DNA from: Paraspadella gotoi
Taxonomy: Eukaryota > Animalia > Chaetognatha
Reading direction: 5' to 3'
DNA length: 64,000 nt
NCBI GenBank assembly: GCA_051294375.1
Contig: CM119264.1
Location: 20,426,248-20,490,247, forward strand
The position numbers and the translations under genes were made by a program. The number at the start of each line of letters is the position of its first letter. Within the stretch, counting starts at the first letter, position 1. The notes below the pieces were generated by a model, which was not told where the DNA came from, did no database searches, and worked only from the letters and a program-made list of their open reading frames with translations. Below, one piece after another: positions 4,124 through 64,000 of the stretch.

Positions 4124-7100
4124 GTGAGTATTTCATTCTTTGTTTACAATTCGTTGGGTTTTTTAACGACGACCAAAACACAAAACACGAAATAAAAAAC
4201 ACTCAATGTTTTTTTTTACTGAAGAAACGCTTTTTATCTTTATCTCTATTTTTCTCTTTATCTCTTTATCTTTTTGATATCGCCTTTCGAAACAGTTTAA
4301 CACTATATGAATCTAAAAAAAATATATAAAAAAATTGACTGACTCTTGAATTATGTTTTTGGGCTTCATCACTTTTCCTGAGGGCCATCCGGGTTATACC
4401 CCCAGTTCATACCACCTGCCCAGCGTGCCGCGTCGGCCGCCGTCGACAGCCCCAAGTTAACGCAAGTGAGGAGCTCTCTGCAAAAAAAAAAATAATAAAT
4501 AAATTAATTAAACACCAAAAACTAAACGCAATCACAGAGGTCACTTTTTAGTTTGTAGCCATCTCCCGACTCGTCAAAACGGCCTTTTTTCCCTTTTTTT
4601 CTCACGTCCCACCCTCATCAATCTTCAACCCTTGCCAGCCGCAGTTTGTCTATGAACTATTGCGTCTCAATTTTTCTCGATCTTCCGGCTTTCGCATTTA
4701 TCCCTCCTGCCACATTCAGAAGTCAGTACTGTTTAAAAATCGAATATTTCCCTTTTCCTCGCCACTATTACCCAATGTCAATTGTAATGTGCGGAAATTG
4801 CCGCAACTCATGAAAGTAGTCGTTGGTGGTGTGAGGGATGTCGGCGAACCGAGTGCCGAGCACCAAGTTTTGCATATCGAGCAAAGTGTTCTCGTGTTCA
4901 GTCCGTCCGTCTCCTCGGTTGATCCAGTCCATACCTCACACAAAAAAGAGATTGTTTTTAAAGACTGAAAAGGCATTTTTTCAACTTTTCTACTTTTCTT
5001 TTTTCGTAAAAGGCTTTATATATATATATCTAGCTATATTTGCAAAGCAGGATGGAAGTTGAGCTAGACTTTGCCAAATATTTACTTACCCCCCGAAATT
5101 GTACATTTTTTTCTTTTTTCTTTTTATTCCTTTTTTTTTCTGGTTACTTAACTTTTCTTCTCTCCTATAGGATTTGTCTTTACTTTCTCTACTATGAGCA
5201 TTTTCCCTTTATTTTCTATAGAAATTTGCTCTTCTGTCTGCACCCACTAGATCTTCACTTGTATTGCTTTACACAAAATAGCAAATTGTTATATGTTTTA
5301 GTCATAATAAATCATAGGGCAGTAAAAACAAAAGATAATTTTTAAAAACAAAATTTTTTTTTTTCTGAAACAAAAGAACAGTCTCATTAATTTTTTTTTA
5401 CCCTATTCTAATAAAGGGGTCTACAAAAAAGAAGCTTTTTGTAAGACAAAGGGACATTCAAAAAAACTTTTTCTGTACCTACTAGATTTTCACTTGCACC
5501 TGCTCTTCAACAAAATAGCAATTTTTAAAAAAAAAGTTTTTTATTTTAAATCTTTTACAAATTTTTAAAAAATATATTTTTAACAAATATTTTTTATTCT
5601 ATTTTATTTTATTATATTTCTTATTCTATATATTGATCAAAGCATTTTAATCATATATAATATATCGAAACAAAAATAATATTATTTTGATTTATAAAAT
5701 ATTTTTGCAAGTACCAAAATATTATTAGTTTAAGCCCTTGAAAGTGATTTACATGTATTTGCGCAGCCACTGGTTTCCTTCTACATTCAATAGAAATTTT
5801 CTCTTCTGTCTACACCCACTAGATCTTCACTTGCATCGCTTTACACAAAATAGAAAATTTTTGCCTGTTTTAGTCTTAATGAATTATATGGCTTCACAAA
5901 CAAAAAAGCATTTGGAAAAACAAAATAGCAAAAGCACTCGCTTTTTGGTCGTTCGGTCGGTCTGTCCATCGGTCTGTCCCACTTACGTTAACAATTCATA
6001 TATGTTGCCTATATTTGGTTGCTCATATGTAGGGTAGCCAGGTACTCTGGGAGTGAATAAACGAGACTGTGAGAGAGTCTTGATTGAAAGCTTGCAGGGA
6101 CCTGCTATGTCATTATCTTGTAAGAGTGATGGGGGCCTTAAACCACCAAAGCCTGTCCAAAGTCAGGGGCAAGATAGCTTATTTATTAAATGAATGGATA
6201 ATTTTTATATTGGTTGTACCAATTTCATGTTAAGACAGGAAAAAAACCCTCAAATCTAAATGACTGCTAGCGCCGCCTTCAGGAAACCCTAAAAAAAAGA
6301 CAAAATTTTGATGCAGTGCATGTCATAAATACAAGGGCTAAAAAGTTTTTTAGTCATGTCATGTGATGTCATACACATGAAAATAAAGTCACTGCGGCGC
6401 AACAAATTGGAATCATCGGTCTTGTTTTCTATATAAAAAAATCAACTATAAATAGCGTCAAAGCCTCGGGGTGGATAGACGCGTGCGTTATCGTTCCTTG
6501 AATAAGCGAAGCGGATAAGACGACGGCTTCTCCTTTTTGGCGTCCGAATCGACCTCCAGTCACCGCCACAATCACTAACCTCACGCCATTCTCCGTCTCT
6601 CATGTTATCGTCTCACCTGCGATGAAAATAGAGGCGTCGTTAACGCCGCTTGCCAACGACTCTCCCAGAAGGATAACTTCTCCGGCCATGGTGTCGGGGT
6701 AGAGAAAGATCCCGCTGGGTAGGATGTGATTTTGCCGATCCTCGCTCTGATGAAAAATGAATCCCAAATATCTGTCCGTAGAATCCTTGATCACTGATGA
6801 GTGATGTTCAATAAGGCGTAGTAAAATTTCTAAATTTAACTTTGATTAAAATTCTAAAAGTGAGTAACGAACAACATTATATTAATGAACATTTATGTAA
6901 TAAAAAAATTTATAATAAATTTTACAATTTATGCAGTAGGCCATATTTATACTAGTACTAAATCAATAAATGTTAAAATTTCAAAACAGTTTTTTCTAAG
7001 ATTTTTTTGCAGATTTGGATTCGTTATAAAAAGTTGATAAAAATAAATATAACTCTTTTTGAAAAATTTGAAAAATTTGAAAAAGTGGGTCAAAAATTAA

Positions 7101-10100
7101 AAAAAACTATATTTTAAGCTATAAATTAACTTTTTATTTATTAAATATAGTTTTTTTAATTTTTAACCCACTTATTGAAAGAATTTTTTAAAATGATTTA
7201 TATTTTCTTTCATCAACTTTTGACAAGGAATTCAAATCTGCAATCAAAATTAAGAAAAGCTTATTTTAAAATTTTCCGATTTTATAAGGATAGTACTATA
7301 TATGATTATAGCCTACTGCAAAAATTTAAAAAAAATAATTAATTTTTTTATATTAATTTTTTTTTATATATTAATTAATTTTTTTACTTTTACTACGCCT
7401 TAATGATCAAAGATTCACAAAATCATAATAATCATACTTTTATATCGTATTTTTCAGATTTTTTACAAAGCCTTTTTAAAAACATACTACGACTAAATGC
7501 ATGCATTTGTATGTACTTTTCGAGAAACCAGACCGGTTTGATTCACAAATATATGAACATGGTATTTACTATTTACAGATATTGAGGACGCAACAATTCA
7601 GATCGATTCACCAATCAATTCAATCAACCGTTTTCATTCACCAGTCGGGTCATAGTGGAGTTTCCTATAAGGGCCTTCAAGAGCAGAATTTCCTCCTCGA
7701 CCGATCTTTCCCGCTCAGTTTTTGCTTCCTCCGGTTTTTCTTCCTCCTTTCCTTCTTCCTCCGTTTTTCCTTCTCTTTGCATGGAGGAGGAGTCTGGTTC
7801 GAATCCTGTCTTAAAAAACATAATAATGGGTAATGGATAATTTTTATATTGGTTGTACCAATTTCATAAATTAACGGTTGACGATTATTTTAATCTAATA
7901 CTTTTCAATCTCTTATGAAAATCAAAAACAACGAGTCATATTTCAATCAGATCTCCATCATATTTCATATATAGTGTTTACCTCTGTTTTACTGGCGTTT
8001 TTGGTAAGCAAAAACATGTGAGCCAGCATTAGCAAATCTTCGTCGCTCAAATTGGCCGCCTCCAACTCTTTAAATCCCTCGATTTCCGATTCCTGTTAAA
8101 ATAACTGTAATATCATTACCCGTTGGATACGACTGTTCGATACGACTGCCATAATAGCGCACTGGGCTAACCCTTCACGTCCGAACCCAATGGTCCCGGG
8201 TTCTATCCCTGGTCGGAACAGCCAAAAGAGTGTCAGGCCGATTAAATATCCGGTAGCAAGCCTACCCTCGGATCTGAAGTTCCGGAAAGCAAGGCAACTG
8301 ACGAAAGATATGTGAAGTTATGTAACATCACTACCCATTGGATACAACTGTTTCTTTTATCAGCTCCATAATAGCACACTGGGCAAATGATTCATCTCCG
8401 AACCCAATGGTCCGGGTTCTAGCCCTAGCAAAAAGAATGACGGGCTGGTTAAACCACCGGTAGCAAGTCTATCGGCGGATCCGAAGTTCCGGAAAGTAAG
8501 GCAACTGACGGAAAAAATCTCCCAGACCCACTGGGCACACTAAGTGTGGGAGCCATCCACATTCACAGAGAGGCATGGCGACCCTCTCTCCTCTCGGTCA
8601 CCTCATTTTCTTGAGATTTACTAGAAATGAAAATTAATTCTGATTTTTATCATTTCGATAAAGAAAAAACTGTTCAGGCAATATACATAGTTGCAGATGT
8701 AGATGGGTTAAGGTTGTATCGTACACAATTCGATTGTAAACGTTACATGTGGTAGCAATAGATAATCACCCCGTCAGATGCTTCACTTTTTGTGGTTTCC
8801 TCCTGAACGTTTTGTTCTGTTGAAAACAAAATAAAATAATTATGACTATAGGTTGTGGCGAACTAACTCTTTTCAAGTTCTATATTTTTGGCACCCGTCA
8901 GGACCGCCCGTGATATACTGTTTGTCATCTCTCCAAGGAAGGAAAACAATGGCGAAAGCACGTTGTTTTGGATGTCATCCAGGTCCTCTTTGAAGCTCTG
9001 AATAGAAAAAAGTTAGCCTTTTGTTTTTTCGTTCACCTCATCCGATTATTGTATCTCAGTAAGTCAGCGTCTTACCCTTACGTCTCGTTTACGCCTCGCT
9101 TTCTCCATAGACTTTCTCGCCATCATCAGTCTCTGTTGCAGAGACACGGGATCGAGCCAATCGAACTCTGAATTTGAGTTTCGGTTTTCTCCGCGACGAC
9201 GCGTCCAAACCAGATGCCCCACGTCGCCGGGCCAGTCGGTGTCTTCGTCCACTCCAAGGCGCCAAATCCGCGCCACGACGAGGAGATTAGAGAGGGTGAC
9301 GATTCTAAAAGGTATAGTGAGGCTCGCTCCATTTCTCAGTACTAACGTCATGTCGAAGTTTCTGTGGTTGAAGCATTGCAATTTCCGATCCTCGGTGGTT
9401 GATGAGACGTTGGGGTCGCGGACGATCGAGTAAAAGCACCCCGCGTTTGTAGAATTCAGTTCGAGATGAAGGTCCTTCTGGATCGTCTCAAATTCGCTCG
9501 CCCGCTTTGATTTGACCGGCGATCGATTCCGCGCGTTTTCGAGCGATTCGGGTGAAGGGTCGGGCGAGTCGTCGATTTCGCCGGTCGACGCGTCACCGCA
9601 TGAGACGCATCGCTGCCAGAGGATCGACACTTGGAGTTTAGAGGAAGGAGAGAAAACTAAAGAAAAGCCTAGGAGGCAGACCAGGAAAAGAAGGGCGATC
9701 GTTGGAGGGGATATGGAAAAATAGGAAGAAGCGACGAGAGAAGAGGGAGGAGGAGGGGCATCCGGGGGACAAAAAGAGGGACACTTCGGCGCCATCTGGT
9801 CTGATTGGCTGGAAAATTAGTCGATCGCCCGGGGAAAAAAGAATGGCTTAGACGAAGAAAAAAAAAGAAATTGAAGGCGGGTCTAGAAAGGAGAATAGGA
9901 GGCGAAAAGATGACCAGAGAGGTAGATCCAATTGTTTGTGAACAACTTGAAATTTGGGTAGTTTTTTCTCTTCTTGTTTATGATTGAGTTAAAATTAAAA
10001 AAAGATAGATTTCCATAAGGTTTTCTAAAAGTCACGAACAGAACTGTTAATGTAAGAAAAGTTTTAAATAATGTGTGTCTTCGCAAGGCCTTGGCGTTAA

Positions 10101-11163
10101 TCGTTAAGGTCGTGTAGTCCCTAATCAAAACTAGTTTGAGCAAACAATGTCGGATCTGCCCACGATCATTAGCGGTAATTAATTAATTAATTAATTAATA
10201 CAAACTATATAAACTAAAATAATAATTTAATTAATAAATTAATTAATTTGATCAAAAATGTTTGTTTTTAGGTCTTTTAAAAGCAACGACGACAATAATG
10301 CCGATAAAGATTGACTTGATTGATTAATTAATTGATTAAATAATTAATTAATTTATAAATAAATTGATTGATTGAATAATTAATTAATAAATAACTAAAT
10401 AAATTTATTGATTGTATAATTAATAAATTGATTAATTAAATGATTAATTATTTGATTAATTAATACATCTTGCATTTACATTTAATATAAAAAAAATAAG
10501 CATAATCAATTAGTGAAACAGGTTTTTTGTTTTTTCCATTTAAACTCATTTCCACTCAGACAATTCCACCGAAACTTGATTTCCAGCTTAATCACACACT
10601 TTCCTACCCACATACAACATTTCAGGTCAATCGTTCAAATAGTGAAATAGATTTTTTTGTTTTTTCCATTTAAACTCATTTCCACTTGCACGATTCCATC
10701 AAAACTTTATATCCAACTCAATCACACACTTCCTTACCCACACACAAAATTTAATTCTGATCCATCCATCCAATCACGAGTAATGGGAGTTTTTTGTTAA
10801 GGTGGGACGGACGGACAGATGGACAGACAGACAGACTTACGGACAGACGGATGGACGGACATCGTTTTTTTTGGGTTTTTTTTTGCATAATTTATCATAA
10901 TTCGATATTCTGACATGATATATGTGAATGCCCGACAAGATTGAGGGAGCGGACCGACGGACCGACAAAGTGAATTATAGACTATAGAGTCGGGATCTGC
11001 TGAAAGCTGAAAGCTGAAATTAAAAAAAAAAGAAAATGTGGAAAGTGAAAAATGTTTTAGCGCGAAGATAAATGGGTTTTTTTTCTTCCTGTCCAAAAAA
11101 GAAAATAAAAAGAAACAAGTTCGCTCGGTTTGTTTTTTCAATCAGATTGAGATTGAGATTGTG

Positions 11164-14200: not shown

Positions 14201-17200
14201 GAATAATTCTGTACTATTATAAGAATAAATGATTATAAAAGAAATAGATAATAAAAAATATGAAAATTTTACTTGTAAGTCGATTATCTCATGAATGAAT
14301 TATCTTAAAATGATGGGAATGGGTTCATCTGAAAGGTCTTGAAAAATGCATCAGGATAAATACATAATTTTACTTATTTCCCTTAAACGTGCTTTTTCAA
14401 AAACCGCTCTAGTGCATGTACGAAGGTCTCCCCTAAAAGTTTCCTGAATGGGTTTTTTCTGTTAATTAAATCGATCTAAGGTTCATACGTGATAAGTTTT
14501 TATATTTAGTATTTATTTATTTTATATTACGTTTCGCCTCAGTTATTTTCTGTCTTTTTCCCTCTTTTTTTTTGACAGTACTTAAGTTGTCCTCAGCTTC
14601 AGTTCGGCCAAATTATTTACTAGTTATTTCGTCGGTCTTTTGTCATTCTTTTGTCGATCTCCAAGTCGTAATTTGGCGAGACTCATGATCAATCTTTAAT
14701 ACGTTTTATGACTTACTAAAAGTAGCATAGCCCGTCCTAAACATAAGTTTTACAGAATTTTTATGGACATTTTGATAGAAAATACAAGTTTCTAAATCTT
14801 CATCTCTACTTTTCATTCATCATTTACTAAATATTCAGCGGAAAAGATATCCTTGTTTGATCACTCAAATAAAATTTATGTTCCCCAGTGCTCCACTCTA
14901 ATCCACAGTCCTAGGGTAACCGCGCCAGTGACTGGATGCGTCACTGAGGGTCGGAAGCCTCCAAAGCCAACAGTGAGATGCCCCATCCCAATGCCATACT
15001 ATCTTGCCCCTGACTTTGGACAGGCTTTGGTGGTTTAAGGCCTCCATCACTCTTACATATATACTCTTATATAACTTTTAAAGCTCTACCAGAATATATT
15101 AAAAAAAATTAAAAATTAGAAAAAAAGTTTGAGCAAACAATGTCGGATCTGCCCACGATCATTATCGGTAATTAATAATTAAATTATTCAAGTTAATTAA
15201 TTAATTAATTTGATCCTAAATGTTTGTTTTTAGGTCTTTTTGTCACTAATCACGACAAAAGCAATGACAACAATGAGAATAATGCCGATAATGATTGACT
15301 TGATTTATTGACTGATTGATTAATTATTTATTAATTAATTGACTAATGAATTAATTATTTGATTAATTAATACATCCTGCATTTACATTTGATATAAAAG
15401 AAAAAAGAAGCATAATCAATTAGTGAAAAAGGTTTTTTGTTTTTTCCATTTAAACAAATTTCCACTAAGACGAATCCATCGAAACTTTATTTCCAGCTTA
15501 ATCACACACTTTCCTAACCACATAACAAATTCAAGGTCAATCGCCCCATCCACTTATGAGAAATTGGTGTTCAAATAGTGAAATATATTTTTTTTGTTTT
15601 TTCCATTTAAACTCATTTCCACTCGGACGATTCCATCGAAACTTCATATCCAGCTCAATCACACACTTCCCTACCCACACAAAAAATTTCATTCAAATCC
15701 ATCCATCCAATCACGAGTAATTGGTGTTTTTTGCTAAGATGGGATGGACGGACGGACGGATGGACAGATGGACGGATGGACATAATTTTTTTTGCATAAT
15801 TTATAAAAGTTTGATTTTATTTTTGCAACAAATTTTATTCTTACAAGAGCAGACATGTTTCAGCTCACAGTACGAGCCTTCATCAGCGCATATGATATAT
15901 CATAATTCAATGTTCTGACATGATATAAGTGTGTGCCCGACATTATTGAGGGGGCGGACCGACGAACCGACAAAGTTAATTATAGAGTCGGGATCTGCTG
16001 ATAAGCAGATCTGACTAAAAATTTTAAACTTTATATAGTAATAAAATAATCTTTAAATGCTTCCTTGCGCTTAACAATAAGATAAATTTTAAAAATTATT
16101 TTTATTTATATATTCTCTAACAGTCACTTAACCATTATTTATTTGAGAGAACTTCTAGTTTTCTACCTGTTCCAGCCTATTGTATATGTATATTATACAT
16201 TAAGGCGTAGTAAATTTTATAAATTTAACTTTAATTAAAATTCTAAAAGTCAGGAACGAACAATATTATATTATTGAACATTTATGTAATAAAAACATTT
16301 TTAATAAATTTGACAATTTACGCAGTAGGCCATATTTATACTAGTACTAATCCAATAAATGTTAAAATTTCAAAACAGTTTTTTCTAAGATTTTTTTGCA
16401 GATTTGGATTTTTCATAAAAATTTGGTAAAAAGAAATATAACTCTTTTTTAAAAATTCCTTCATTAAGTGGGTCAAAAATTATAAAAAGCTATATTTTAA
16501 GCTGAAAATTAACTTTTTATATATTAAATATAGTTTTTTTTTCATTTTTAACCCACTTAATAAAAAAAATTTTAAAAATGATTAATATTTTCTTTTATCA
16601 AATTTTGACAAGTAATTCAAATCTGTAATCAATTTTATCAATTTTATAAGGATAGTACTATATATAAATATAGTATACTGCAAAAATTAAAAAACATAAG
16701 ATTAATTTTTTTTACAAATTAATATTCACTGAGGTATGTTGTTTATAATTAACTTTTAGAATTTCTGTACATAACTTTCACTACGCTCTATTATACAATA
16801 AACATGGTCGAAGAATCAAAATGATAAGTATAAAAAGTAAAAGGAAAATAAAGAAATAAAGCAAAGAACAAGGGAAAAAAATATTTGGAGTTCATGAGAA
16901 AAAAAATGGAAGAAAGTGAAGAACAGCGTTAACCGGAGAGACTATCTCAAGCTAAATGGCTCTCTTAAACCTCAAAAGAAAGAAAGAATACATTTTTAAA
17001 AAACAGGCTTGCGCTCTCTGTAGAGGGATTGAAGGTTAGGAAAACGAAACTTTATTGTCATGGTAAAAAGTTACAAAACTTAGCTTGTAGTTACTAGAAA
17101 TGAGTGGGAAACGCCAAATGCTGCAAGATATGAATATGTATTTATTATGTATACATTTAAAAAAAAATTCATTGGAAAACAAAATCTTACAGAATTAGGA

Positions 17201-19147: not shown

Positions 19148-19187
<40 letters not shown>

Positions 19188-22100
19188 CTTAGTGACATGT
19201 TTGACTTGCCCAGGTGATGGATCCTTTGATGACAGCGAGGAAGGGTCTATTTCCGGTCGCCGGTCAGCAACGTCGGAGGAGGCAGCGCTGGCGGCAGAGG
19301 CGACGCCCTACGATTTGGGCGGTGCGACGCCCCGCCTCCCGCCAGGTGCCGACAGCGCCGTCGCGCCTGCAGCGCCGCAAGGTGAGACTAGAAATAAAAA
19401 CGCTGAACGGAGCCGCGATGGTTGTACGAAGCGGTTTTTTGAGGTTCTGAAATTTATGAAGTACTATTAACCTCGTTTGACATTAGCGTACTTTACGTAT
19501 ATATGAGCTGCAAAAGTTCAAATGAACACTGTCTTGGTAGAATTTACTTTAAAATATTATTGGATCAATGTACTTCAGTTTTATTATATAACATTTATAT
19601 TATATAAATTTATATTCATGAGCAACCGTTTTAACCCCCGCCTCGTTTTGTCATAGTCATTCAAAAACAATAAAATTCGCTGGATAATACGTATAATTCT
19701 TTTTATATTTTTACACGGATTTCAAATGGGAGTGAAATGAAAAGAGTTTTTAAAACTATTAACTGACTGACTAAAATTTTTGTTATTTTATTATAATTTT
19801 AGGATAATGTCTTAGGAGCTTTCAAAAACATTCTTATTAGTATCTTTCAAGGTATAGTTGGAATTTTTGAAATTTTTGAATTTTTTATTTTCTATAAATT
19901 TTAACTAGAAAAGCTATAAAAATTAAATGGCTGTCATAATGGTTTTCTGATTGCACATGCTCAGGCACATACTCCAATGCCTATATCATTAAGATAAACC
20001 AAAATTTGTAAACATTTTTTTTTCAAACATTTTTTTTTCGTTTTTTGAAATTCGACCACAGCGTTGATAAGCACATAACTAAGAAAGCAAGCAAGCTAGC
20101 AACGAAGAGAATGGATTATCAAGTGGCTTGTCTCTCTTGGCTTCTCCGTCTTTTCTTTTGATTGACCAATCAGAGAGGAGGCTTCCCTGAGGAACTTACC
20201 TTCAAGAAACAAACATCAAACTCCTTATGGACTATTTGTTATATTGTTTATTGCCTGCCTTTTCTCTGCATAATCTACATATTTTGTATGTTAATTATCA
20301 TCATCCTAACGTGTTCTTATGTCAATAAAACTCCTCCTATTTCTCCCTTAATAAACCACGCCTTCTTCCTTCGTTGTGGTGGCTCACCACGCCTCCTAAG
20401 AAGACCACTCTACCGGAATTACGCTACCCTACTTTAGAAGTAACACCATTTTAGGTCATCCTCCTTAAAATAAAAAACCCCCAAAATATAAAAACTCTTC
20501 TTATTTAAACCAAAAAAAAATAAATGAAATTTAAAAAAAATAATCTCCCATTAAGTTAAAGCGATGAAAAAGAACCCACTCTCCCCCCCCAAAAAAAAGT
20601 TTCGTGAAAAGACAAAAAAAAAAATCAAGTAAAAAAAACCAACTCTAAAAACAATTTTATTTTGCGAATTCAGGAGTGCGTTCAATTGTAGCCTGAGTGC
20701 AAAAAAAAAAAAAAAATCCCTCCCAAAAAATATTTAAAACTACACATTTTCCAAACTTGAAAACCCGATTCCTCAACTTTTAAAGCTTAACAAATAAAAA
20801 AAATATCTCTGATATATTAAACTTCTAATTTTAAAACTCCCCCCTCCTTACGTTGCATAAAAAAAAAAAAAAAACGACGCCAAACTTATCAAAAGATCTT
20901 TTCCCGACGACCGTGTGTTTTCTCTCTGAGCCATGCCGTCACGTGACCCAGCATTGCTCCCAAACACAAAAGAAAAACACGATCTCTCCCTGTTAATCCT
21001 ATCCAGAATAAAAAGAAGCCAAGGCCAAAGTCGCGACATTAAAAACAATAAAATTTCTCTCTCACCCTTTAACAGAAATGCTCCTACACATAAAAAACCA
21101 GTACCAGAAAAGAAACTGCAACGGCCAAACAATGGCCAATCCGTACCAAATGAAAAGTCAATTTGAAAATGCAGCTTCTAAGCTCATTTCTCACCCACCA
21201 CCCTCCTCTATTCTCGCGCCAATAAGCAATGAAGATGAAATAATTTTTAAGAAATGCGATCTCTACTACAAGTACTTTTCAGCCCCCTCAACATTTGATG
21301 GACCACACATAGGAGTAATAAAACTATTTCAAAATAACTTAACTCATGAGGCCCGACTTTCATTTAGAAGCCCAAGCACCTCTTATGATCTTCAAATTGA
21401 ATCACAAACCAAACCTTGGCAAATGGATATCGTACCCATTCAGTCTAAAACGAACTCCACAAATGTGAAACATATTATTTGATCAGGCCAGAAAAAAATT
21501 ATGATTTGTACATTAGGTGCTATGACATTGAAGATGGCATCATTTTTAAAGCTGAATTTGATCGTTTATCCCGAGAAAAGAAAATAAAAGAAGAAAAAGA
21601 AAAGTACCAAACCATTCAAAATCTGAAGGTACTGAGGACAAAGATAAATGTAAAGACGAAGTAAAAAACGATGTAGAAAAGACTACAGAGGAAGGAAAAG
21701 AGCTCGAATCAACTTGCCACAAAACTGGAGAAGAACAAAAACAGGCAATACCACCCAAGAAACTTACCATAGAACAGGTATTTGCCGAAATATTTTCTGG
21801 GCAACCTGAACTAAGGAAAAAGAAAAAGGCCAGCAACTCTCCTGCTACAAACACTCAACTAAACCAAACCATAAGGAATTCAGAAATGCAAACAGATGCC
21901 TTACAATCCAAAACACTTGCATTGACAATTTCAACACAAACAGATAATCCCCCAAATTGTAATATAGCAGAACAAAATATACAAACAGAAGACCTTAAAG
22001 ACCCACAAAGCAAAACATTTAAAAAGACTGTTTCAACACAAAGGATCGCCCAAATAGCATTACAATGGCAACACAAACTGATGAACCCCCAAATAGCATA

Positions 22101-25100
22101 AAATGGCAACACAAACTGATGAACCCCCAAATAGCAATACAATGGCAACACAAACTTAGAAACCCCCAAGCAAAAGTCTACAGGTTCTACCTGACTTCTC
22201 CAATTTGATTAAAACTCTCTCAGATACCCGAGATGAAATATCTAATCTTTACCACACTGACCAAGCTGGCCTTGAACATACAAAAAAATTTGAGATCAAT
22301 CAAAGCAACAAGGAAACTTACAAAGAAGAAAGACTCAACCAAAGTCATATCAATGAATCAGTATTTATTAGACACATTTTTTTCCGCAACAAATGGTCAT
22401 AGAAACTTCGGAAAACCACCATTCGATTCGAAATAAAATTCTCTTTCAAATGATGTGCTATATGATTAACTTATTTAAAGATTTCGCTTGACCCAGCGGC
22501 GTCGAAGTTCCACATGCGTCAGATTCATTGATTTATGTATATTTTGAAACGTTGAAGGGATCTTATGTGATGTTTTTAATCATTATGGATTGAAATGAAT
22601 GTAAAACTCCGATGTAGTTGTAATTTATTAAAATTAATAAAAAGTATTAAGCAAAATATACCGGAAGTGTAATTTTAATATTTTTAAACCAATTTATCTT
22701 CTCTCATGAAAGTGACGGCAAGAGGCAAACAATTCTTGCGTTGTTATTGTTAACTGAATCTTTAAACTTGAAGTTCATAAGACACTTTGTTTGGCTTAGG
22801 GTGAGATCGACGATGTTCTTCAAAGCCCTGAAGCATTGCTTCATGTTGCATTTTATTACGGGTTATTGAACCATTGTAATCACTTGCAAATTTAACCACC
22901 CTCTCCGCAGCATCATTGAGTGGCGAAAATCCATTTACAAGCTTGCAGAATGAGTGGTAGTTGGCGTTATCATTACATTCTTCCACAGGTTTTGACAAAA
23001 AAGATGGCTCAAAGTGACAAAGCTGTGTAATAAATTATAATAGTCATTGAAATTAGATATAATTAATATAAAATTATTGATAAAATATTGCAAATGAACC
23101 TGAAAAAATAACCATGAATCAGCCGAAACGTAATCTTCTAATTTCTGTTTTCATATACGCATGGTATTTCCGGCTTTCCCATTTCTACTTGGACCTTTTC
23201 AGAGCTCAAGAGGGCTTCAGCCATCGACATTCTAGTTGAGTTTGAGACTTTTTTTGAAGCCAAAGCGAGAATAACCGAGTGGCCAGAAAGATATTCGGTA
23301 TGTAAATCAATCTTTCTTAGTCCAGCATGGGCCCCATCGCGATCCCTTGATCGCCACGCCATTAGATCTTCATGAAGGGAGACAGTAAGGAATGGAGCAC
23401 CCGCCATGAATGGACAGCAGAACCAGTAATAAAATTGAATGTACAAGATGAATAAGACATCACCAAGACATCCATTTTCTGCTGGTGACTCAAAACAAAA
23501 GAATCACCAACGATCAGCATTTTGAGAATGTAGAGGCAGCTACCCATCCAACGAGCGTGATGTATCGTGCTTAGCCTTTTTGTCATGTGAAGTTGAGCTT
23601 CTTTGCCGAAGAAAAAGAGACGAGATCAACTGACTTCATATTAATTTTATTATGAGTGTGCTTTTGGCAATATAATGATAATTGATTTCTAAAATCTAAA
23701 TAAATCTGCAAACTACAAAGCATTTTGTGCATAATTATTTATCTAATTTTACTCTATTCATATTCTACTAAAAATATGACATTGTAATCTTTTTCCTTAG
23801 TTCTTCCTTAGTTCTTCCGAATTGTTTTCAGGTGAAGCAAAGGGATTCGCGCGTCACCCAGTTGCCAAAGGTTAATTAATTCTAGAGCTACGACATAAGC
23901 AGTCTCATTTTTATCTCGCTGGTTTTTGGGCTGAGTGTAAAAAATGTCAAAGAACCGTTCCAATACTGCTGCCCCTTTTGGTGGTTCTGCCGGCGGTGGT
24001 CGAAAGTTCGCTAAGCGCTTGCAAATACCAAATTCGGGAAACAGAGGAAACTCGGCCCCTGTAGCAGAACGAGTGTTCATGATTAATGGACTGTCAGTAA
24101 AAAAAGATTATTCTTAATAAATTAAACAAAGAATAACTATCTATCAGTCACAGAAATTTAATAATTAACTAAATTATATCGAAAAATAATAAATATTGTA
24201 ACTGAGAAAGAGTTCCAATTTGGATGTTGTTACCAAGTTGCTTTCAACTCGCCTGGGTCAAGCGAAATATTTTTAGAAAGTAATTAAATTATATACCAAA
24301 CGAAAGAGAATTTTATTTCGAATCGAATGGTGGTTTTCCGAAGTTTCTATGACATTTGTTGCGGAAAAAAATGTGTCTAGTATTTATCATTCAAAATAAC
24401 ATAATGGAACCGTCCCACAGACAGTCATCCAAAAAAAAAATAAAACCGGATAAAAGCCACTTGAACATATGGGCATAAATACCTATTCAGTCTTTCCATA
24501 GTAATGCTACGAAGTCTTAGGTAAGATAACAGTTTCCAAAAATTATTCTTTTTCAAGTTTTAAGCAAATCTCTATTTCGGATGAGTCTTTGTGAGGTTTG
24601 TTTCACCCACATGGGTCGAATAGAAAAATTATTTGACTTTGTTATGGTATCAGCACTTTGTCTAGTTTGTTAACAAACAAAAAAAAGATTTTCATAATAT
24701 GTCACTATGTATGATATAAAAAACATAGTAAAAACTCATCGAATTTCAGCCGATTTCAATCAACCAGATTTAGTTCCTAATGATACATCTTCACACTAAT
24801 CAGTTACTAATTTAATCTCATCCGCATTCGTCCGCCATTTTGAGAAATTTAAAAATGCTTTTCATTCAAAAAATAATAAAAAAGAATTCGATATTCTTCA
24901 GAAATTACCATATTATTCTTTTCTTTGATGGATTTTCCGATCTTAATTTGCTTCGCGCACTTTTAAAGAGATTAAATTAATGATTTTATATTTAGCAAAC
25001 GTACACCTATTACTTATAATATAAATATCAAAAAAATATTAAGTTAGGTCAATTTCTTTGTAAAATCAAAATTATAAATCAAAAGTCGTTCAACTACCAT

Positions 25101-27244
25101 AAATAATTTCTTTAAGAACCAAATTTGTCGGTTAATGAATTTTTTCTCCATATTTTTTCAAATCAATCTTAAACATTTGAAACTTTTCCAACAACCTCAG
25201 AGGGCTTCTATGATAATCAGCATACGAGAAAAAGTTGTTTTTGTCAAAAAAGAGAGGTTTATCCGGAAATTTAGTCCATTTGGATCACTGTGCCACAGCA
25301 AACTTACTACTGAAATGTCAAGCTTGAAAAATCTTAGTGCAAACAAATCTCAAAATTATAAGCAGCATAAACAGGAAAAGGTTGAGAAAAGAAAAACACT
25401 AAGAAACCAAACAGATCCTATCAGAATCATCCCAAAACTGATGGATCTTAAAATCAAACCACCATCAATCCACCAAAACCTAAAAATCAGATACAACCAG
25501 CTAAACCCATTGGCAAAGTCTAGAAGGCACTACATGCTCTAAAACAAATTAACAGATTGAATCCATTACATTACAATGACCCCTGGATGATGGAACAATA
25601 CCTCCCATGGTGGACTTCAACTTCTCCACAGCCCTTCATCCACACCTGAGGAGGACTTATGAGCTCGACAAGGGGCTAATATACAGACATAGGAGATGGA
25701 TGAATAGAGACTTGGGATAAGGAACACGCTCGACCAATTCTCAGATACACGAGAAGGTCTCGCAATGGGAGGGGGGTGACAACGCAGAGAATGGATTATC
25801 AAGTGGCTTGTCTCTCTTGGCTTCTCCGTCTTTTCTTCTGATTGACCAATCAGAGAGGAGGCTTCCCTGAGGAAACCGACGGCAGAGAAACGAGAGAGGG
25901 AACTGGATCACTCTTCAACTTACCTTCAAGAAACAAACATCAAACTCCTTATGGACTATTTGTTATATTGTTTATTGCCTGCCTTTTCTCTGCATAATCT
26001 ACATATTTTGTATGTTAATTATCATCATCCTAACGTGTTCTTATGTCAATAAAACTCCTCCTATTTCTTCCTTAATAAACCACGCCTACTTCCTTCTTTG
26101 CTAGGTATTGAAAAGAAAACAAGTTTGAGCAAACAATGTCGGATCTGCCTACGATAATTAATTAATTAATTATTAAATAATTTTTAATTAATCAATTATT
26201 AATTAATTTTTAATTAATTAATTATTATTTAATTATTAATTAATTATTAATTATTAATAAATAATTATTATTAATTTATTAATTAATTAATTTTAATTAA
26301 TAATAATAATTAATTAATTATATTTTATTTTATGTCTCTTTCTCTCTTCTCTCTCTCTCTCTCTCTTTTATGCAATTGCGACGATTGCTTTTAAGATTTT
26401 TTTAACTTGCATCAATTTTTCAACTTGCATCATTTTTTCATTTGCATCATTTTTCAATTTGCATCATTTTTTCAATTTGCATCATTTTTTCAACTTTCAT
26501 CATTCTTTCAACTTGCATCATTTTTTCAACTTGCATCATTTTTCAACTTGCATAAATTTTTTTAAATTGCATCATTTTTTCACATTAATTAATTAATTAA
26601 TAATTATTTAATTAATTAATTAATTAATAAAACATTTATTAGTAATCATTAATTCCATTTAAACTCATTTCCACCTGCACCATTCCGTCAAAACTTTATA
26701 TCTGGCTTCTTCTCACACTTTCCTACCGGCTCACAAAATTTCATCTCAATCTATCATGGGTTAAAATAAATAAAAAGATTCAAGTAAATGTGACTCATAT
26801 TTTTTCATTTAAACTCATTTCCACTCGCACGATTCCATCGAAACTTTATATCCAGCTTCATCTCACACTGTCCTACCCACACACAAAATTTCATCCAATC
26901 CAACCAGCCAATCACGAGTTATTGGAGCTTTTTGCTAAGGTGGGACGGATGACGGATTAATTGACTGATTAATTAAAAATCTTTAAAGCATAAGGAATCG
27001 AGCCTACTTTTGATGATAACCAAATATTGATGCGATGATAACCAATATTGATGCGATGATAACCAATAATTGATGCGATGATAATAAATAACTGATGTGA
27101 TGTAATCAGAATGATGATATATTCATTGATGTGATGATAATCATTCATTGATATGATGAATCATTCATTGATGCGATGATAGTCATTCATTGACGCGATG
27201 AGTCATTCATCGTAAATAAAACAAACAAATGCGTGTATGAATGA

Positions 27245-28770: not shown

Positions 28771-30241
28771 GGAGGAAGACGGAGGAGAGAGAGAGAGAGG
28801 CCTGAACTCGTTTTTTTTAACGATTCAGAAAAGGCAGCGCCTGATCAAATATATATGTTTTTAGAAAAGAAAAAATAATCAGAATTTTTCAAAAAACGAA
28901 GATCACGCAAGAGATCGCACACAAAGAGAGACAGAGAGAAACTGAACTCGTTTTTAAACGATTCAGAAAAGGCAGCGCCTAAAAAAAAATATATATAATT
29001 AAAAAATAAATAAAAGAAGGCAAAATGTTACAATGGTTTACAATTGGAAACTTTTCCAATTTTTTCCAATCGCAGCTTGTAAAGATTTATTTTTTATTTG
29101 TATTAAAATTAAGATATAGCTTCTCATTAAAAAATCTTTGAGTTCCCATTTTTTATTAGAAATTTAAAAAAATTTTTTGAATTTCATCTTCAATATTATA
29201 TACTGCAATATGTAAATTAGCTTAAAGCATTTCTATATACTAATTTGGATATTATAATGAGTACTATAATCTCATTTGCATATTGCAGTAAATCATAATG
29301 AAGTGGAAATTCAAACAAAAAATACTTAAATCCAAATGTAATATGAAAATATCACAGCTATTTCAAGATGAAAAGCCATATCTAAAATTTAACTTACTAT
29401 GATCGCACACTTTTGTAAAACTTTATCATAATTCATAATAATTTTTATTTTAAAAAAAACGGTAAGTCACAGCCAAACCTATAAAAGCGTAGTAGTTTTT
29501 TATATATGAAAACAGCGTGACCACGACGACGACGACGACGACGTCACAAAGAAGCAACCCTAAAACATTATAGAGCCTGACCCGGCTTCGCCCGTCAAGG
29601 CTCGATAATTATTGATTAATTGACTAATTTATTTTAACTGAATAATTATTTGATTTATTAATACATCCTGCATATACATTTAATTAAAAGGAAAAAGAAG
29701 CATAATCAATTTTTTGTTTTTTCCATTTAAACTCATTTCCACTCAAACGATTCCATCGAAACTTGTTTTCCTGTTCAATCACACACTTTCCTACCCACAT
29801 ACAAAATTCTAGGTCAATTGCCCCATCCACTCATGAGCAATTAATTAGGCAATTAGTTAATTAATTTGATTTGAAATGTTTTGTTTTAGGTATTTTCGTC
29901 ACTAACCATGACAAAAGCAATGACGACGATGAGAATAATGCCGATAACGATTGACTTGATTGATTGATTGAATAATCAAATAATAGATAAATGAATTGAT
30001 TGATTAAATAATTAATTAATAGATAAATAAATTGATTGATTGAATAATTAATTGATTGATAAATTGACTGATTAATTAATTATTGATTAATTAACTGATT
30101 TTTCTCTTTTAATTATATGTAGCTATTCTCTCTCCTTTTTCCCAGTGCTGATTCATCTCCTGCTGCTTCTGCTGATGCCTTTTGATTTCTTTCTTTTTTT
30201 CTGCGTTCTCTGCTGCTGCCGCTGCTGATTCGTCCAAAACG

Positions 30242-30308
<67 letters not shown>

Positions 30309-30383
30309 AACATTTTTTTTATTTACTTTTTTTTTTATCATTTTGCTATTGCAACATCAAGTTTTAATTTCCTTTTTTTTTCC

Positions 30384-30445
<62 letters not shown>

Positions 30446-33400
30446 CAATTATGCAATTGCGACGATCCTTATGCTTTTAAGATTTTTTCAACTTGCATCA
30501 TTTTTTCAACTTGCATAATTTTATTAAATTGCAACATTTTTCCACATTAATTAATTAAAACATTTATTAGTAATCATAAATCATAAAGATTCAAGTAAAT
30601 GTGACTTATGTTTTTTCCATTTAAACTCATTTCCACTGGCACAATTCCGTCAAAACTTTATATCTAGCTGATTAATGAATTATTGATTAATTAATTGACT
30701 AATTGATTAATTAACTGATTAATTATTTGATTTATTAATACATCCTGCATATACATTTAATATAAAAGGAAAAAGAAGCATAATCAATTAGTGAAACAGT
30801 TTTTGTTTTTTTCATTTAAACTCATTTCCACTCAAACGATTCCATCGAAACTTGATTTCCTGTTCAATCACACACTTTCCTACCCACATATAAAATTCCA
30901 GGCCAATCGCCCCATCCACTCATGAGCAATTGGTGTTCAAATAGTGAATTATATTTTTTTGTTTTTCCATTTAAACCAATTTCCACTCGCACGATTCCCT
31001 CGAAACTTCATATACATCTCAATCACACACTTCCCTACCCGCACACAAAATTTCATTCCAATCCATCCATGCAATCACGAGTAATTGGTGTTTTTTGCTA
31101 AGGTGGGACGGACGGAGGGACGGACGGACGAACAGACAGACGGACGGACGGACATCAATTTTTTTGCATAATTTATCATAATTCGATGTTCTGACATGAT
31201 ATTAGTTAGTGCCCGACAATATTGAGGGGGCGGACCGACGGACCGACAAAGTGAGTTATAAGAAGCGGGATCTGCTGATAAGCAGATCCGACTAAAAACC
31301 TCAGCAATTTTTTTAGCAGGGTACAAAATCTGTAAAACAAATAATTTAGCCACATTATTTCACTCCCATTTGAAATCCGTGTAGTATTTCACTTTTAACG
31401 TCCCTGCCTTGTTTTGAATTTCGCCACGTTCTGACATCACTGGCTGCCTTTAGTTAAAACTAATCTTTTTCGATGTTTTCGTTCTCACTTTCGGTGACGC
31501 TTTTGGTGGCGCCAAATTCGCCCCCTCTTCTCCCCTCCCGATATTTTTCCCGCGCAAATCACACGTCGTTTCTTCTCACGAACGACGTCGCTCCATATTC
31601 ACACCATCTCACATTTCTTCACACAAACGTTTCCGGGTTTCTCTTGATCTTAAATATTGTGCTCGCGGTCAAACGCATTCATTTGCCAAAAAAATATTTC
31701 TTTATCTGAATTATAATCTTTCACAATCTATATGAACTCATAAACTGCTCTTTTCGGCGACGCGATCTCTCTTCCATCCTTTCGCGTCCGTCTCGCGACG
31801 ACCCTGTTTCACCTCACCAACGTCGTACCCACAGCCCCGCCCCGTCATTCCCGCGCTTTTGCCGGCCCACCCCCGCCGCAGCAACAACTGTCCTCCCAAG
31901 AGCTCCCGGAACCCGAGGCCACTCAATTGGCTCTACCCCACCGCCCCGAAAGAGCACCAGAGCCCTCCACCGCCCTGAACGACGACAGCCCATCGGGGAC
32001 GCCCGACAAGAAGAAAAAATTTGCCTTTACCTTCGGGCGAAACAAGAAGAAGAAATCGGGGCAGGAGGAGGCAGACACTGCGGCCGAGCTGGAGGCCGCC
32101 GCCAACGCCGCCATCGCCGTTCCCGCCACGCCCGTCTCCGCCCCCGCCTCCGCCTCGATGCTGGAAGAATCTCCGGGCCCGCCCGGCACCGAGGATCCCA
32201 TCTTCAAGCTTCTCTCAGAAGGGACGGACAAGAGGAACGTCGACCGACGGCTTTCTCGGCAAAAGACACTCTCCGACGAATGAGGTCGCTCTCTGCTCCA
32301 TATTCGACCAAACCGCGGGAAAAAAAATCAAAACAAAGAAAAACTCTTCGCTGCAGAAAACAACCAAATATAATTTCAAGTAACAAGTGAAATTATACAG
32401 TTGAAATAAAAAATAAGCAGCAATCAATGAAAAAGAATATTTGATCAAACGCGAGAGAGATTTTGATTTTGAAGTGGGAAGCCACGATTACTTTTGTTCA
32501 AACTGTCTTTTCTCTCTGTCGATGACAGTCCATTTACGCAAGTTGTTAGAGGAAAAGACGGTCGTTTTTCTTGAGAGATGTTCACTCCGAGACGATTTTT
32601 TTTCTTAGACTTCTCAAAAACATTTACCTCTTTTAAAATTGGCTGTTGTTTTTAAGTTTTGAATACTTTCCCCTGGGACCATCTTTTTCAAATGTCATTC
32701 AAAAGAAGGCGTTCTATTTAGCACTCCTTTTCTCATTTAAGAAAGACAGACTTCTCCCAGTTCGAAATATAAAATTTACCAAATTCATTCACACAACATC
32801 ACATCCAAATTAATGTCATACTTGAGCAAAGTGGCACATCCGAGAAACAAATAGAAGTTATGTGAAGAGCTTTATGCATTGTCTCTTTACAAGGATTTGG
32901 AGTTGAAAAGTAGACAGCATCCTTGAAATGACGTTGAATCAAAGTTCAATGTTCTCGTTATATTGTTCCGAGTCCCGATGTGAGAATGAGTCGTTTTTAC
33001 CAAAAAAATTACATCCACTCCAAAAGATTCGAAAAGAATGAATTAAAAATTAGTAAATTCAGAATTTGTGCGGACTTTCCTTGGTCTGGACTCCTCGACT
33101 TCATCAAGAATACGAATAGTTAGTCAAGAGCAAAATGTCTCGAATTCACGAGTTGATCCTCATAAAACGAAGAACCTCACAGAGAGTGTGGGCCAGGGGC
33201 AAATATTTGGCGGCGGCGTTTTCAGCGTCTTCGGCGCGGAGGCCAAACGGCCTCGTAAATAAATGTTTTGCCCCTTTGAGGCGCTGGAATTTGCCGAAGG
33301 AATTATTTGGAAGGAATTGTGGGCATATCTCCTTCTAGTTGAGTAAGTTGAGAGGTTTAGGAAAATATTCTGAAGAAATTTTGCTGTAGAAACTAACAGA

Positions 33401-36400
33401 TATATGTTGCTGTGTATTTTTGTATTAATGACGAATATGAATTTAATCTAGTTATTATTAAAATAATCTTATGAGGAGTAATGCATTAAATCCCTTTCTT
33501 ATTCAATGATTTGATGTGGCTAACTCTACCAATATATGTGCTCGAAAGGCTTAAATACTAGGGTGAAGTCAAAGTTTGATATCAAAATTTAGCAATTAAA
33601 TCTTGAACTGTATCTATTTTTCTTTATTTTTATTAATATAGTAACCCGGTCAGCTTACATAGTATTTCCTCTATATATTGTCAAAATTATAAATCGTTTT
33701 CTTCAAATTCTGTTAACAGATTCAGATTCCTGAAAAGAAGAAAAAATAAATCTTTTTTTAAGTAGGTTAAAATTTAAAAAAATTATATTTTTAAACTGAA
33801 AATTAAAAATGGGTAACTTAAATATGATTTTTTACATTTTTGACCAACTTAATGAAAATTTTTTTTAAAAAAATTAAAGGAAAAGGAATAATAATTTATT
33901 TTCAATAACAATAGTTTTTGTTCAATTGGACATATTTCGACTTTAATATTTATTATTACAAGTCTTCAAGTTGTTGAAAATAAATTATGATTCTATGGAC
34001 GGCACAAGTTTCAGATCAAGAATGATTTATTCTTCAACAAGATTATAAACAATAACAGTCAAAATGCTCAGATGCTAAGTCTATTACAATGGTATTTACA
34101 AAAGTCAACGTTTTGACCACAAATAAACTGGGGGAAACGAGCGGGGTCAGGTTGTTAAGGTCAAGTGGTTTGACCGAGGTTGCATGTTCTATATGTTCGT
34201 CCACAATTCCTTTTCCTCTAATCTCATACATAACGAATTGAAAGAAAATTATACAATGTTTAAAAAAGAATTATACTTTCTTTTTTCAACGAATTCAAGT
34301 CCCATCTAAAAATTTAAATATTTTCATTTTTATACATATTATTACTATGTATAAATATAACTTACTGGTGCTTCCATTTATTTTTTTTTTACATCACTCT
34401 AATAAATACAGCCCTGAGCTTGCGGTAAAAACTACACGCGTACTTTTGCATGCAGATCATAGATTCATAGTGTATTGTTTTTACCCCTATTTTTTAACTC
34501 TTTGAAAAATTTGGTTCCTGGAGATTTCTTTTTTTCTTGCGAGTGTAGAAGACGAAGGATTTTCCCATTTCCGAAAATCCATGAAACAAAAAGAATGAAT
34601 TATAGCCTTCCTCTGAATATTGAAAAAGGAAGCCAGAAAAAGAAGAGAAACGAGAGAAAAAATAATCTTTTGAGAAAAAAACTTCTTTATTGATAACCCA
34701 AGGTCAAAAACTTTGTTTTAAATTACAGAAACCAATATTCTATTTGTTTTGCAAGTACTTCTATGTTTTGTTCAAATTTTAAAAAAACTTTCTTTTTCTT
34801 TTTATTTCCCAACCAACACAATGCAATTCTCCACTGGCATTTTACTTTAACTCCAACCAAATCACTCATCCTAAAATATCGATCGGTGAAATTCGATATC
34901 TAATTATGATTCTAACTTCATCCCTTTTTTTTATGATATCTTTTACATTGTTAAATTAATATTGCGAATATTCAACATATCTCTCCTTTTAAACGCCGAA
35001 ATTTGCCTTTAACACGATCTTGTGAAATAAGTGCAATCTCTCAAACGTACATCTCAACAACTTTAACATCGGTGCGTCATTTTTCAAAGCGGATACTTTG
35101 GAGAATCTAAGGATACGTCTATTCAGTTCAGTGCCTCAAAGCAATTTTAATATCACATTTGCAAAGGATATTCGTGGATGCCCAACGCACAAATTTTTCT
35201 CGCTTGTTAAAAAAAAAGGACTTTCTCTCAATATTGTATGACAACAACATTGTGATAATGTACATAAAATGATGATTTTTCTCCGGCTTTATGTTACGCT
35301 GGTCCACTTCTCCCCTCACTCTTTTGCCCCTTTCCGTTTTTTAGTAAATTTTCTTTTTTTTTACAATCAAAAGCCCGATTTAACGAGATTCACGGGTTAT
35401 AATTGTTTATTTTTAAATTTAAAAAAAAATAAATAACTATCATGGAAGATCGGAATTGATAGGTATTTTTATTTTATTTTATTTTTTTTTTTTTTGATTG
35501 CGAAAAAGGAGGAAAGGCAGTTAGTTTACGAAAGACTCTTAGACTTTTACAGACTAACTGAAGTTCCTACTTTCCCTTTTCGTATTTTGGCCAATGCCAC
35601 GACTGATCACACTGTTAATGGGAACTTTTCTAGTCACACTCTGTATCCAGACAACGTATTCCAGGTTTTTTTCATTCTGACGATTATTTTAATTAACTAA
35701 AAAACCTACAAGGCCCGTTGTCTGATCTTTGTTGATATGGACTTGAATTTTAGTTTAGAAAAATACCCAACGACTTTGGTATGTAGTGATTTGTAATTTC
35801 ATGGCATCTATTGATTGTTTTCTGTTTAAAGATTCGAGAATTTTTCATATTTTATAATTTTTTAATCTTTGTAACAAAAATAATAGTGTCATAAACAGAT
35901 CATTTTAGAGTTGACGTATTTGGGTCCTCTAGATCGAATGGCATCAAAACATTGCTCCCTACTTAATGTATTGGTGATTTTTATGTAAAAATGTAAAGAT
36001 GTCGCTTTTCTATTACAGAAATATTTAATCTATAAAATTACTATATTTTATGTAAATAACATTTTTATATACTTCACGTTAATAATCTCTCATAAGAGTA
36101 GGTAGACATTTGTATTTTAAAACCAAATATCACGCGCTTCCCATTTTTAAAAACATGTGAAATTATTTTAATTAATCATCCCTTTAAAGGAGTGTGATTA
36201 ATTTTTCTTACTTTATCGGCACTTTGACGTGTAAACGGTTCTACCTTTAGGTATTTGCAGACAATTAATAACAATAAAGTCGCCTAAGGCTAAGAATTAA
36301 CACATTTTAAAGTCCAAGAAAATAGCAATTACACAAATATTGTCAGACAGATGCTTGGAAAATATAGTTAACTAAGTTAGTGTTGAGAAGTGCAAATCTG

Positions 36401-43647: not shown

Positions 43648-64000
<20,353 letters not shown>

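Follow-up and report, generated by a model that had tools for sequence, protein, structure and literature searches.

The window analysed here is a 64,000-nt stretch of the genome of the chaetognath Paraspadella gotoi (GenBank assembly GCA_051294375.1, contig CM119264.1, positions 20,426,248 to 20,490,247 of the forward strand), and all coordinates below count from its first letter. It contains a 6.0-kb element with direct long terminal repeats (LTRs; 20100-20376 and 25780-26100) and one main open reading frame (ORF). Tentatively, the element is regarded as a damaged copy of a multi-copy LTR element without a recognisable pol or capsid gene, whose ORF would combine a likely PH-fold head, a linker and an LC8-type array that dimerises the chains, and would likely localise RNA or particles rather than bind Ran. 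The element comprises the following features:

20096-20099, no strand: left 4-bp target-site duplication CTAG (sequence)
20100-20376, plus strand: 5' LTR, 277 bp, CAACG...CGTTG (repeat comparison)
20377-20394, plus strand: primer-binding-site-like stretch starting with TGG (sequence; abuts the 5' LTR)
20395-21077, plus strand: A-rich leader (frame list and contigs of other copies)
21078-21218, plus strand: putative ORF start and proline/serine-rich N-terminal arm (in-frame ATGs at 21078 and 21132)
21219-21604, plus strand: candidate PH-superfold domain, a putative remote RanBD relative with the WKERG motif replaced and a frameshift near 21467 (profiles)
21605-21870, plus strand: charged low-complexity linker with a basic RKKKK patch; frame change at ~21575-21630 (frame list, composition)
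21871-22169, plus strand: seven-site QT array, interrupted in this copy by two frame changes and a stop (motif scan)
22170-22368, plus strand: C-terminal ORF part up to an insertion (frame list; gap-free contigs over 22163-22368)
22369-24379, minus strand: inserted DNA transposon of hAT type with terminal inverted repeats (TIRs; 8-bp duplication)
24388-24478, plus strand: ORF continued behind the insertion, up to this copy's first stop (frame translation)
24590-24670, plus strand: pair of CxxC motifs at a distance of 23 codons, in frame with the ORF continuation but behind three stops
25078-25542, plus strand: second open stretch, 154 codons from stop to stop, lysine-rich (frame list)
25766-25779, plus strand: polypurine-tract-like stretch (sequence; adjoins the 3' LTR)
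25780-26100, plus strand: 3' LTR, 321 bp (repeat comparison)
26101-26104, no strand: right 4-bp target-site duplication CTAG (sequence)

Structure of the LTR element

The two LTRs differ by 5 mismatches in 277 aligned columns, and 44 nt of the 3' LTR are absent from the left one; the divergence of 1.8% implies that the copy is young. Both outer sides carry CTAG, a palindrome, which in the single insertion examined corresponds to the 4-6 bp duplication expected of LTR retroelements. TGG lies directly 3' of the left LTR, and a G-rich purine tract ends 3 nt before 25780. These features bear out the initial annotation, in which the locus had been described as an LTR element. No tRNA genes were found in the window, and the primer-site-like stretch is a candidate only. 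In this one insertion both LTRs start with CA and end with TG, which departs from the 5'-TG...CA-3' rule; in a survey of plant LTRs, the sole invariant base of TG...CA is the first T (10.1101/137141). The element is an LTR retroelement by structure, with unusual CA...TG termini.

Other copies and the reading frame

Between 27 and 35% of sampled window words are present in nine runs (three studies, one organism), and four runs from three studies were aligned in detail, giving 1043, 729, 452 and 177 contigs, for which summed depth is not copy number. Contigs of other copies range from less than 90% to more than 99% alike to this copy, a spread that indicates many diverged copies of the element. 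Loose contig ends of other copies start at 20100 in run X6, matching the 5' LTR boundary. Further contigs of this run have loose ends at 20381, where the LTR end and the first following bases are common and a different primer-site-like sequence follows; they possibly hint at a sister family, which might be an autonomous partner.

The main ORF likely starts at 21078 or 21132 and extends to at least 24478, its length from those starts being roughly 440-460 codons. Neither of the ends assigned earlier, 20933 and 22368, could be retained. The ATG at 20933 opens a 78-aa frame (20930-21166) and is private to this copy, all aligned depth in the four runs differing from the window at 20934, inside the ATG. 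Contigs over 20922-21103 and 21074-21323 are gap-free relative to the window, so no indel links this frame to that of the domain. The other end coincides with a 2-kb insertion that had been missed: a 2011-bp element with perfect 14-bp TIRs starting with TAG, ~130-bp inverted ends at 86% identity, and an 8-bp target duplication (22361-22368 and 24380-24387), the short TIR and 8-bp duplication being those of a hAT element. None of its six fragmented frames has a Pfam match, transposase included. Minus-strand fragments such as LNDAAERVVK (22762-23034) look like transposase remains, tentatively of the hATm kind. Behind the insertion the same frame resumes at 24388 and runs for ~30 codons to a stop at 24476-24478. 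Contigs of runs X1 and X4 pass from 22368 directly into 24388, so other copies are without the insertion.

Several ORF breaks are private to this copy. The frameshift near 21467 is absent from contigs of runs X4, X6 and X9 (those of X1 end there), and all aligned depth in each of the four runs differs from this copy at the in-frame stop that follows the last QT site (near 22157). The peptides quoted in the initial annotation occur in the sequence, though in separate frame pieces. This copy is decayed or affected by assembly errors, and the frame of the family is likely open.

Frame conservation was also assessed by indels in 25 of the 32 listed contig pieces, 7 having been dropped as repeats of the same stretch and 2424 further pieces lying outside this set. 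The ORF (13 pieces) has 162 substitutions and 6 gap letters, and the upstream region (12 pieces) has 213 substitutions and 64 gap letters; among the listed pieces, indels are depleted in the ORF relative to upstream. A relative ~84% alike keeps the frame over 21159-21388, and relatives 84-88% alike keep it as well. Coding constraint on the family ORF is probable, with two points against it: the upstream region is homopolymer-rich, hence indel-prone anyway, and only 11 of the 26 listed differences fall at third codon positions (P=0.22). The retained ORF in a pol-less LTR element, as proposed earlier, gains support from the anatomy, together with the motif statistics and position rules treated below; the third-position bias is not significant.

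The head domain

The head domain was scored read through its frameshift break. A RanBP1-type profile was built from 51 domains (119 metagenome loci with 65 long enough frames, from which 11 intron read-throughs and 3 duplicates were removed), and a RanBP2 profile from 43 domains at 70% identity (366 domains of 120 RanBP2-like proteins). The former gives a local score of 5.4 bits (P=8e-4), reached by 6 of 2000 shuffles, and the glocal score lies at z=5.2, reached by none of 600. The independent RanBP2 profile gives P=2.7e-5, and the combined profile gives 12.1 bits (P=6e-6, 0 of 5000 shuffles) over positions 15-136 of 138, the reversed sequence scoring P=0.06. In hhalign, 112 columns are aligned at 16% identity, above all 300 shuffles. 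Hydrophobic residues occupy 17 of the 22 core columns in the head, compared to a background of 38%, and five strands are predicted, at low confidence, at the expected places in its N-terminal half. A PH superfold would be a sandwich of seven strands with a C-terminal helix. The structure model (predicted local distance difference test, pLDDT, 43) has no fold match; a true RanBP1 fragment failed likewise, so the fold test is uninformative. In BLASTP against 171 proteins, the best match to RanBP2 domains reaches E=0.02, and nothing comparable to the array is present in those proteins. Judged from the profiles, the head is reasonably likely to be a PH superfold derived from a RanBD-like domain.

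Several results speak against this assignment. With the narrow RanBP1 profile, two window tiles that have nothing to do with the domain outscore the head (6.7 bits against 5.4), the hhalign probability is 27%, and no relative of the ORF pieces tried was found in Pfam, PDB sequences, 1.84 billion representatives, a word-index search or the ESM Atlas. Moreover, because the RanBD family was picked after the fact, P=6e-6 has to be corrected over ~25,000 families (24,736 in Pfam), which gives E ~0.15. The RanBD likeness is statistically real as a single comparison and borderline as a library search, a suggestive result; the RanBD/PH head of the initial annotation has moderate support from the full-length collinear match and the hydrophobic core.

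The head could instead be an unrelated beta-rich domain whose likeness to RanBD is due to chance, leaving only the LC8-type array meaningful. The corrected E value, the hhalign probability and the small number of identical conserved columns (4 of 14, see below) are in line with this. Yet the score grew with the broader profile, from 5.4 to 12.1 bits, each half of the domain reaches a score of its own (P=5e-5 and 2e-3), with order and spacing as expected, and the profile made of RanBP2 domains only agrees. A chance likeness is held to be unlikely, though it is the strongest of the competing explanations.

Binding of Ran is a separate matter. The WKERG motif, which makes salt bridges to the Ran effector loop (PMC3045386) and is also named in PMC7229160, has all five columns replaced in the head, and the residue is identical at 4 of the 14 highly conserved RanBD columns. 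Milder WKERG changes in RanBP3 go with a dissociation constant of 14 uM (PMC3045386). Canonical Ran-GTP binding by the head appears distinctly unlikely, and the engagement of Ran proposed earlier is not supported; the head probably binds something other than Ran. Neither domain half matches Pfam Ran_BP1 (PF00638) at E<=1, and the element is not classed as a RanBD member because both the Pfam match and WKERG are lacking.

The QT array

The seven QT sites have their Q codons at 21889, 21937, 21982, 22039, 22074, 22112 and 22151, with Q-to-Q spacings of 48, 45, 57, 35, 38 and 39 nt. The last three stem from a 39-bp tandem repeat (22049-22169, 3.1 copies), the second unit of which is short in this copy. 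The number of units varies among copies (22033-22069 is skipped in run X6, and contigs of X1 and X4 have loose ends at 22069).

Using the strict motif [TIVM]Q[TV][DEP], three occurrences were found in one unbroken 158-aa piece outside the tandem repeat, compared to a mean of 0.07 in shuffled sequences (P ~1e-5, 200,000 shuffles). Of the 20 strict motifs in the entire window (six frames, 127,996 aa), five fall within 21886-22112, i.e., 230 nt. In the 120 RanBP2-like proteins, the motif density is 0.14 per 1000 aa, and no protein has more than 2. Order-promoting residues make up 19% of the motif segment, a measure of composition only, compared to 32-38% in the domain pieces.

According to the LC8 position rules in section 9 of PMC6607443 (the anchor [T/I/V]-Q-[T/V], D/E/P at +2, and permissive residues at -2 to -4), four of the seven sites agree with every stated rule: sites 2, 3, 5 and 6 (LTISTQTD, AEQNIQTE, ITMATQTD and HKMATQTD). 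In site 1 (RNSEMQTD), position -3 is taken by a small residue; site 4 (KTVSTQRI) reads TQR, a poor +1 anchor, with a local indel in this copy; and site 7 is followed by the stop, which cuts it at +2. The sites resemble binder entries of Table S4 in PMC6607443 and the consensus of PMC3078936. The seven motifs reported earlier are thus present, with the repeat behind the last three, except that the fourth and the seventh are imperfect, and the proposed multivalent LC8-type array gains support from the motif statistics and position rules. Three of the seven arose by recent tandem duplication and do not count as independent, and only 7 of 19 sequences predicted by a position-specific scoring matrix bound LC8 in PMC6607443, which tempers the prediction. 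On balance, the array is predicted to bind LC8 with fairly high probability.

The linker and the segment behind the array have further features: the RKKKK patch resembles a nuclear localisation signal, and 22170-22368 possibly opens with an amphipathic helix, as judged by eye.

No recognisable pol, and the 3' region

In the internal region of this copy, motif scans detected neither protease, reverse transcriptase or integrase nor a CCHC knuckle, and none of the nine frames read has a Pfam match at E<=1, which agrees with the earlier description of the element as pol-less. The pol of autonomous Gypsy, BEL and Copia elements, with protease, reverse transcriptase, RNase H and integrase, is lacking in this copy. 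A plain Gag capsid match, named in the initial annotation as an outcome that would overturn its reading, was found neither by Pfam nor by motif, in frames that are fragmented and for proteins that diverge fast. Other copies were compared 5' of 24480; in the right third (24480-25779), outside that comparison, relatives may hold a longer ORF, a capsid or pol, and this possibility counts against a pol-less and capsid-less family. That the main ORF is the only one, as had been stated, is not certain, given the second open stretch at 25078-25542, for which the searches returned no homologue. The CxxC pair at 24590-24670 is the sole one in the plus-strand frames of the internal region and possibly represents a decayed C4 zinc finger.

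The ORF may represent the N-terminal portion of an atypical, longer Gag or polyprotein, with the head and the LC8 array as matrix-like trafficking modules and a capsid/zinc-finger part further 3', decayed in this copy. It occupies the gag position after the leader, both CxxC motifs lie in the same frame 110-190 nt beyond the first stop, and the stretch at 25078-25542 is open and A-rich; gag-only LTR families exist (Bik-1 and Bik-2, PMC12067270), and foamy-virus Gag binds LC8 for capsid transport (PMC3705263). Against this, capsid, CCHC and pol are unmatched in any frame, and the region 24500-25100 has an A+T content of ~70-75% and stops in each of the three frames, in contrast to the A-skewed ORF. 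A longer Gag is considered improbable.

Relation to known systems

MaLR is, like the Bik elements treated below, a gag-only non-autonomous LTR family. Bik-1 and Bik-2 (zebrafish BHIKHARI; PMC12067270, PMC9341512) share with the element here the LTR boundaries, the multiple copies, the absence of pol, the single ORF and the need for a partner to transpose. Their ORF is a recognisable Gag, whereas a PH-like head and a QT array without a capsid match are found here, together with CA...TG termini and a 4-bp duplication.

Multiple TQT-type anchors that have D/E at +2, lie in low-complexity sequence and are spaced 12-19 residues apart also occur in ASCIZ/ATMIN, FAM83D/Chica and RSP3 (PMC6607443) and in Panoramix (PMC7861614). 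Those LC8 clients are host genes; the array here lies on a mobile element, has arisen partly by 39-bp tandem duplication with a variable number of units, and is only predicted to bind. With the RanBDs of RanBP1, RanBP2 and RanBP3 (PF00638; PMC3045386), the head shares a collinear match of ~120 residues that takes in the acidic stretch at the N terminus, the G-x-x-K-L of strand 2, the R of strand 3 and the F of the terminal helix; it differs from them by its 16% identity, the fully replaced WKERG and the missing Pfam match of either half. Even the low-affinity domain of RanBP3 keeps W, E and R (SWVER), so that the head is the more diverged (PMC3045386). Prototype foamy virus Gag (PMC3705263) is likewise a retroelement protein that associates with LC8, there for transport of the incoming capsid, but it does so via the coiled-coil region CC3 and is a complete capsid protein encoded by an autonomous virus; the available part of that source mentions no TQT array. 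In the open-access literature, within the text available, no LTR element with a PH-like head and an LC8-type array was found.

Proposed role of the ORF protein

The element would be reverse-transcribed and integrated in trans by enzymes of an autonomous partner, a mode of mobilisation that is likely. Its ORF protein would consist of the PH-like head, the charged linker with the basic patch and a disordered tail. As in other multivalent clients, LC8 dimers would hold the tails of two chains together site by site, in register, and several of them would zip the two chains into a stiff dimer whose heads are paired. The protein might then, on the analogy of foamy Gag, help to localise or assemble the ribonucleoprotein (RNP) of the element or borrowed particles; such a trafficking or assembly role is conceivable, with the chances slightly short of even.

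The array could also act as a decoy, abundant and multivalent, that draws LC8 off host silencing complexes and weakens repression of the family, for which seven sites, a basic patch and a number of units that differs among copies would be suited. Panoramix-type silencing is known from flies, LC8 is abundant and its titration would need high expression, and the head domain is left unexplained; a decoy is quite unlikely. In Drosophila, co-transcriptional silencing of transposons depends on LC8/Cut-up bound to two TQT motifs of Panoramix, and 49 of 69 families go up upon its loss (PMC7861614), a precedent in favour of a decoy. Equally doubtful is the view of the ORF as a passenger, a piece of a host gene that was captured, has no function for the element and is open owing to recent amplification: the nucleoporin-like features (RanBD-like head, LC8-type array), the young LTRs and the insignificant third-position bias would fit it, but no close host homologue exists among the 1.84 billion representatives, the nearest RanBP2 domains (E=0.02 among 171 proteins) come without such an array, and relatives 84-88% alike keep the frame.

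Neighbouring features

An exon-like match to TRPC/TRP-gamma channels lies at 51797-52036 on the plus strand (best E=0.004), and the GC-rich frames 19153-19470 and 31744-32283 are other likely plus-strand exons. The LTR element probably lies in an intron, in sense orientation. Between 16187 and 18151 lies a foldback element whose inverted arms, several hundred bases long, are 80-97% identical; pieces related to it occur at 6805-7252 and 33760-33834. The stretches 10127-10979, 15120-15984, 26116-26949 and 29595-31260 belong to a dispersed family of repeats in both orientations, with subrepeats of 130-157 bp and ATTA and GGAC microsatellites, one copy beginning just 3' of the 3' LTR. An element with nested inverted arms (81-94 bp, 84-96%) at 46930-48427 is likely a miniature inverted-repeat transposable element.

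Implications

Pol-less LTR families with a single ORF are known, and the ORF is normally a Gag. If the proposed reading of the element as a pol-less family with a PH-like head and an LC8-binding tail is true, the ORF product would be a multivalent LC8 client encoded by a mobile element, of which no example was found in the open-access literature within its available text, and a transposon would be building a scaffold that binds a host hub by tandem duplication. The CA...TG termini would point to atypical end recognition by the integrase of the hypothetical partner. In a bolder version, which is rather improbable, an LTR family with CA...TG ends would have swapped its Gag for a captured nucleoporin-type PH domain and a self-expanding LC8 zipper of seven sites, serving either nuclear transport of the RNP or sequestration of LC8 needed by PIWI-interacting RNA (piRNA) silencing. 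As LC8 serves both viral trafficking and piRNA silencing in flies, the array would offer a peptide-level test of whether elements exploit or jam this hub.

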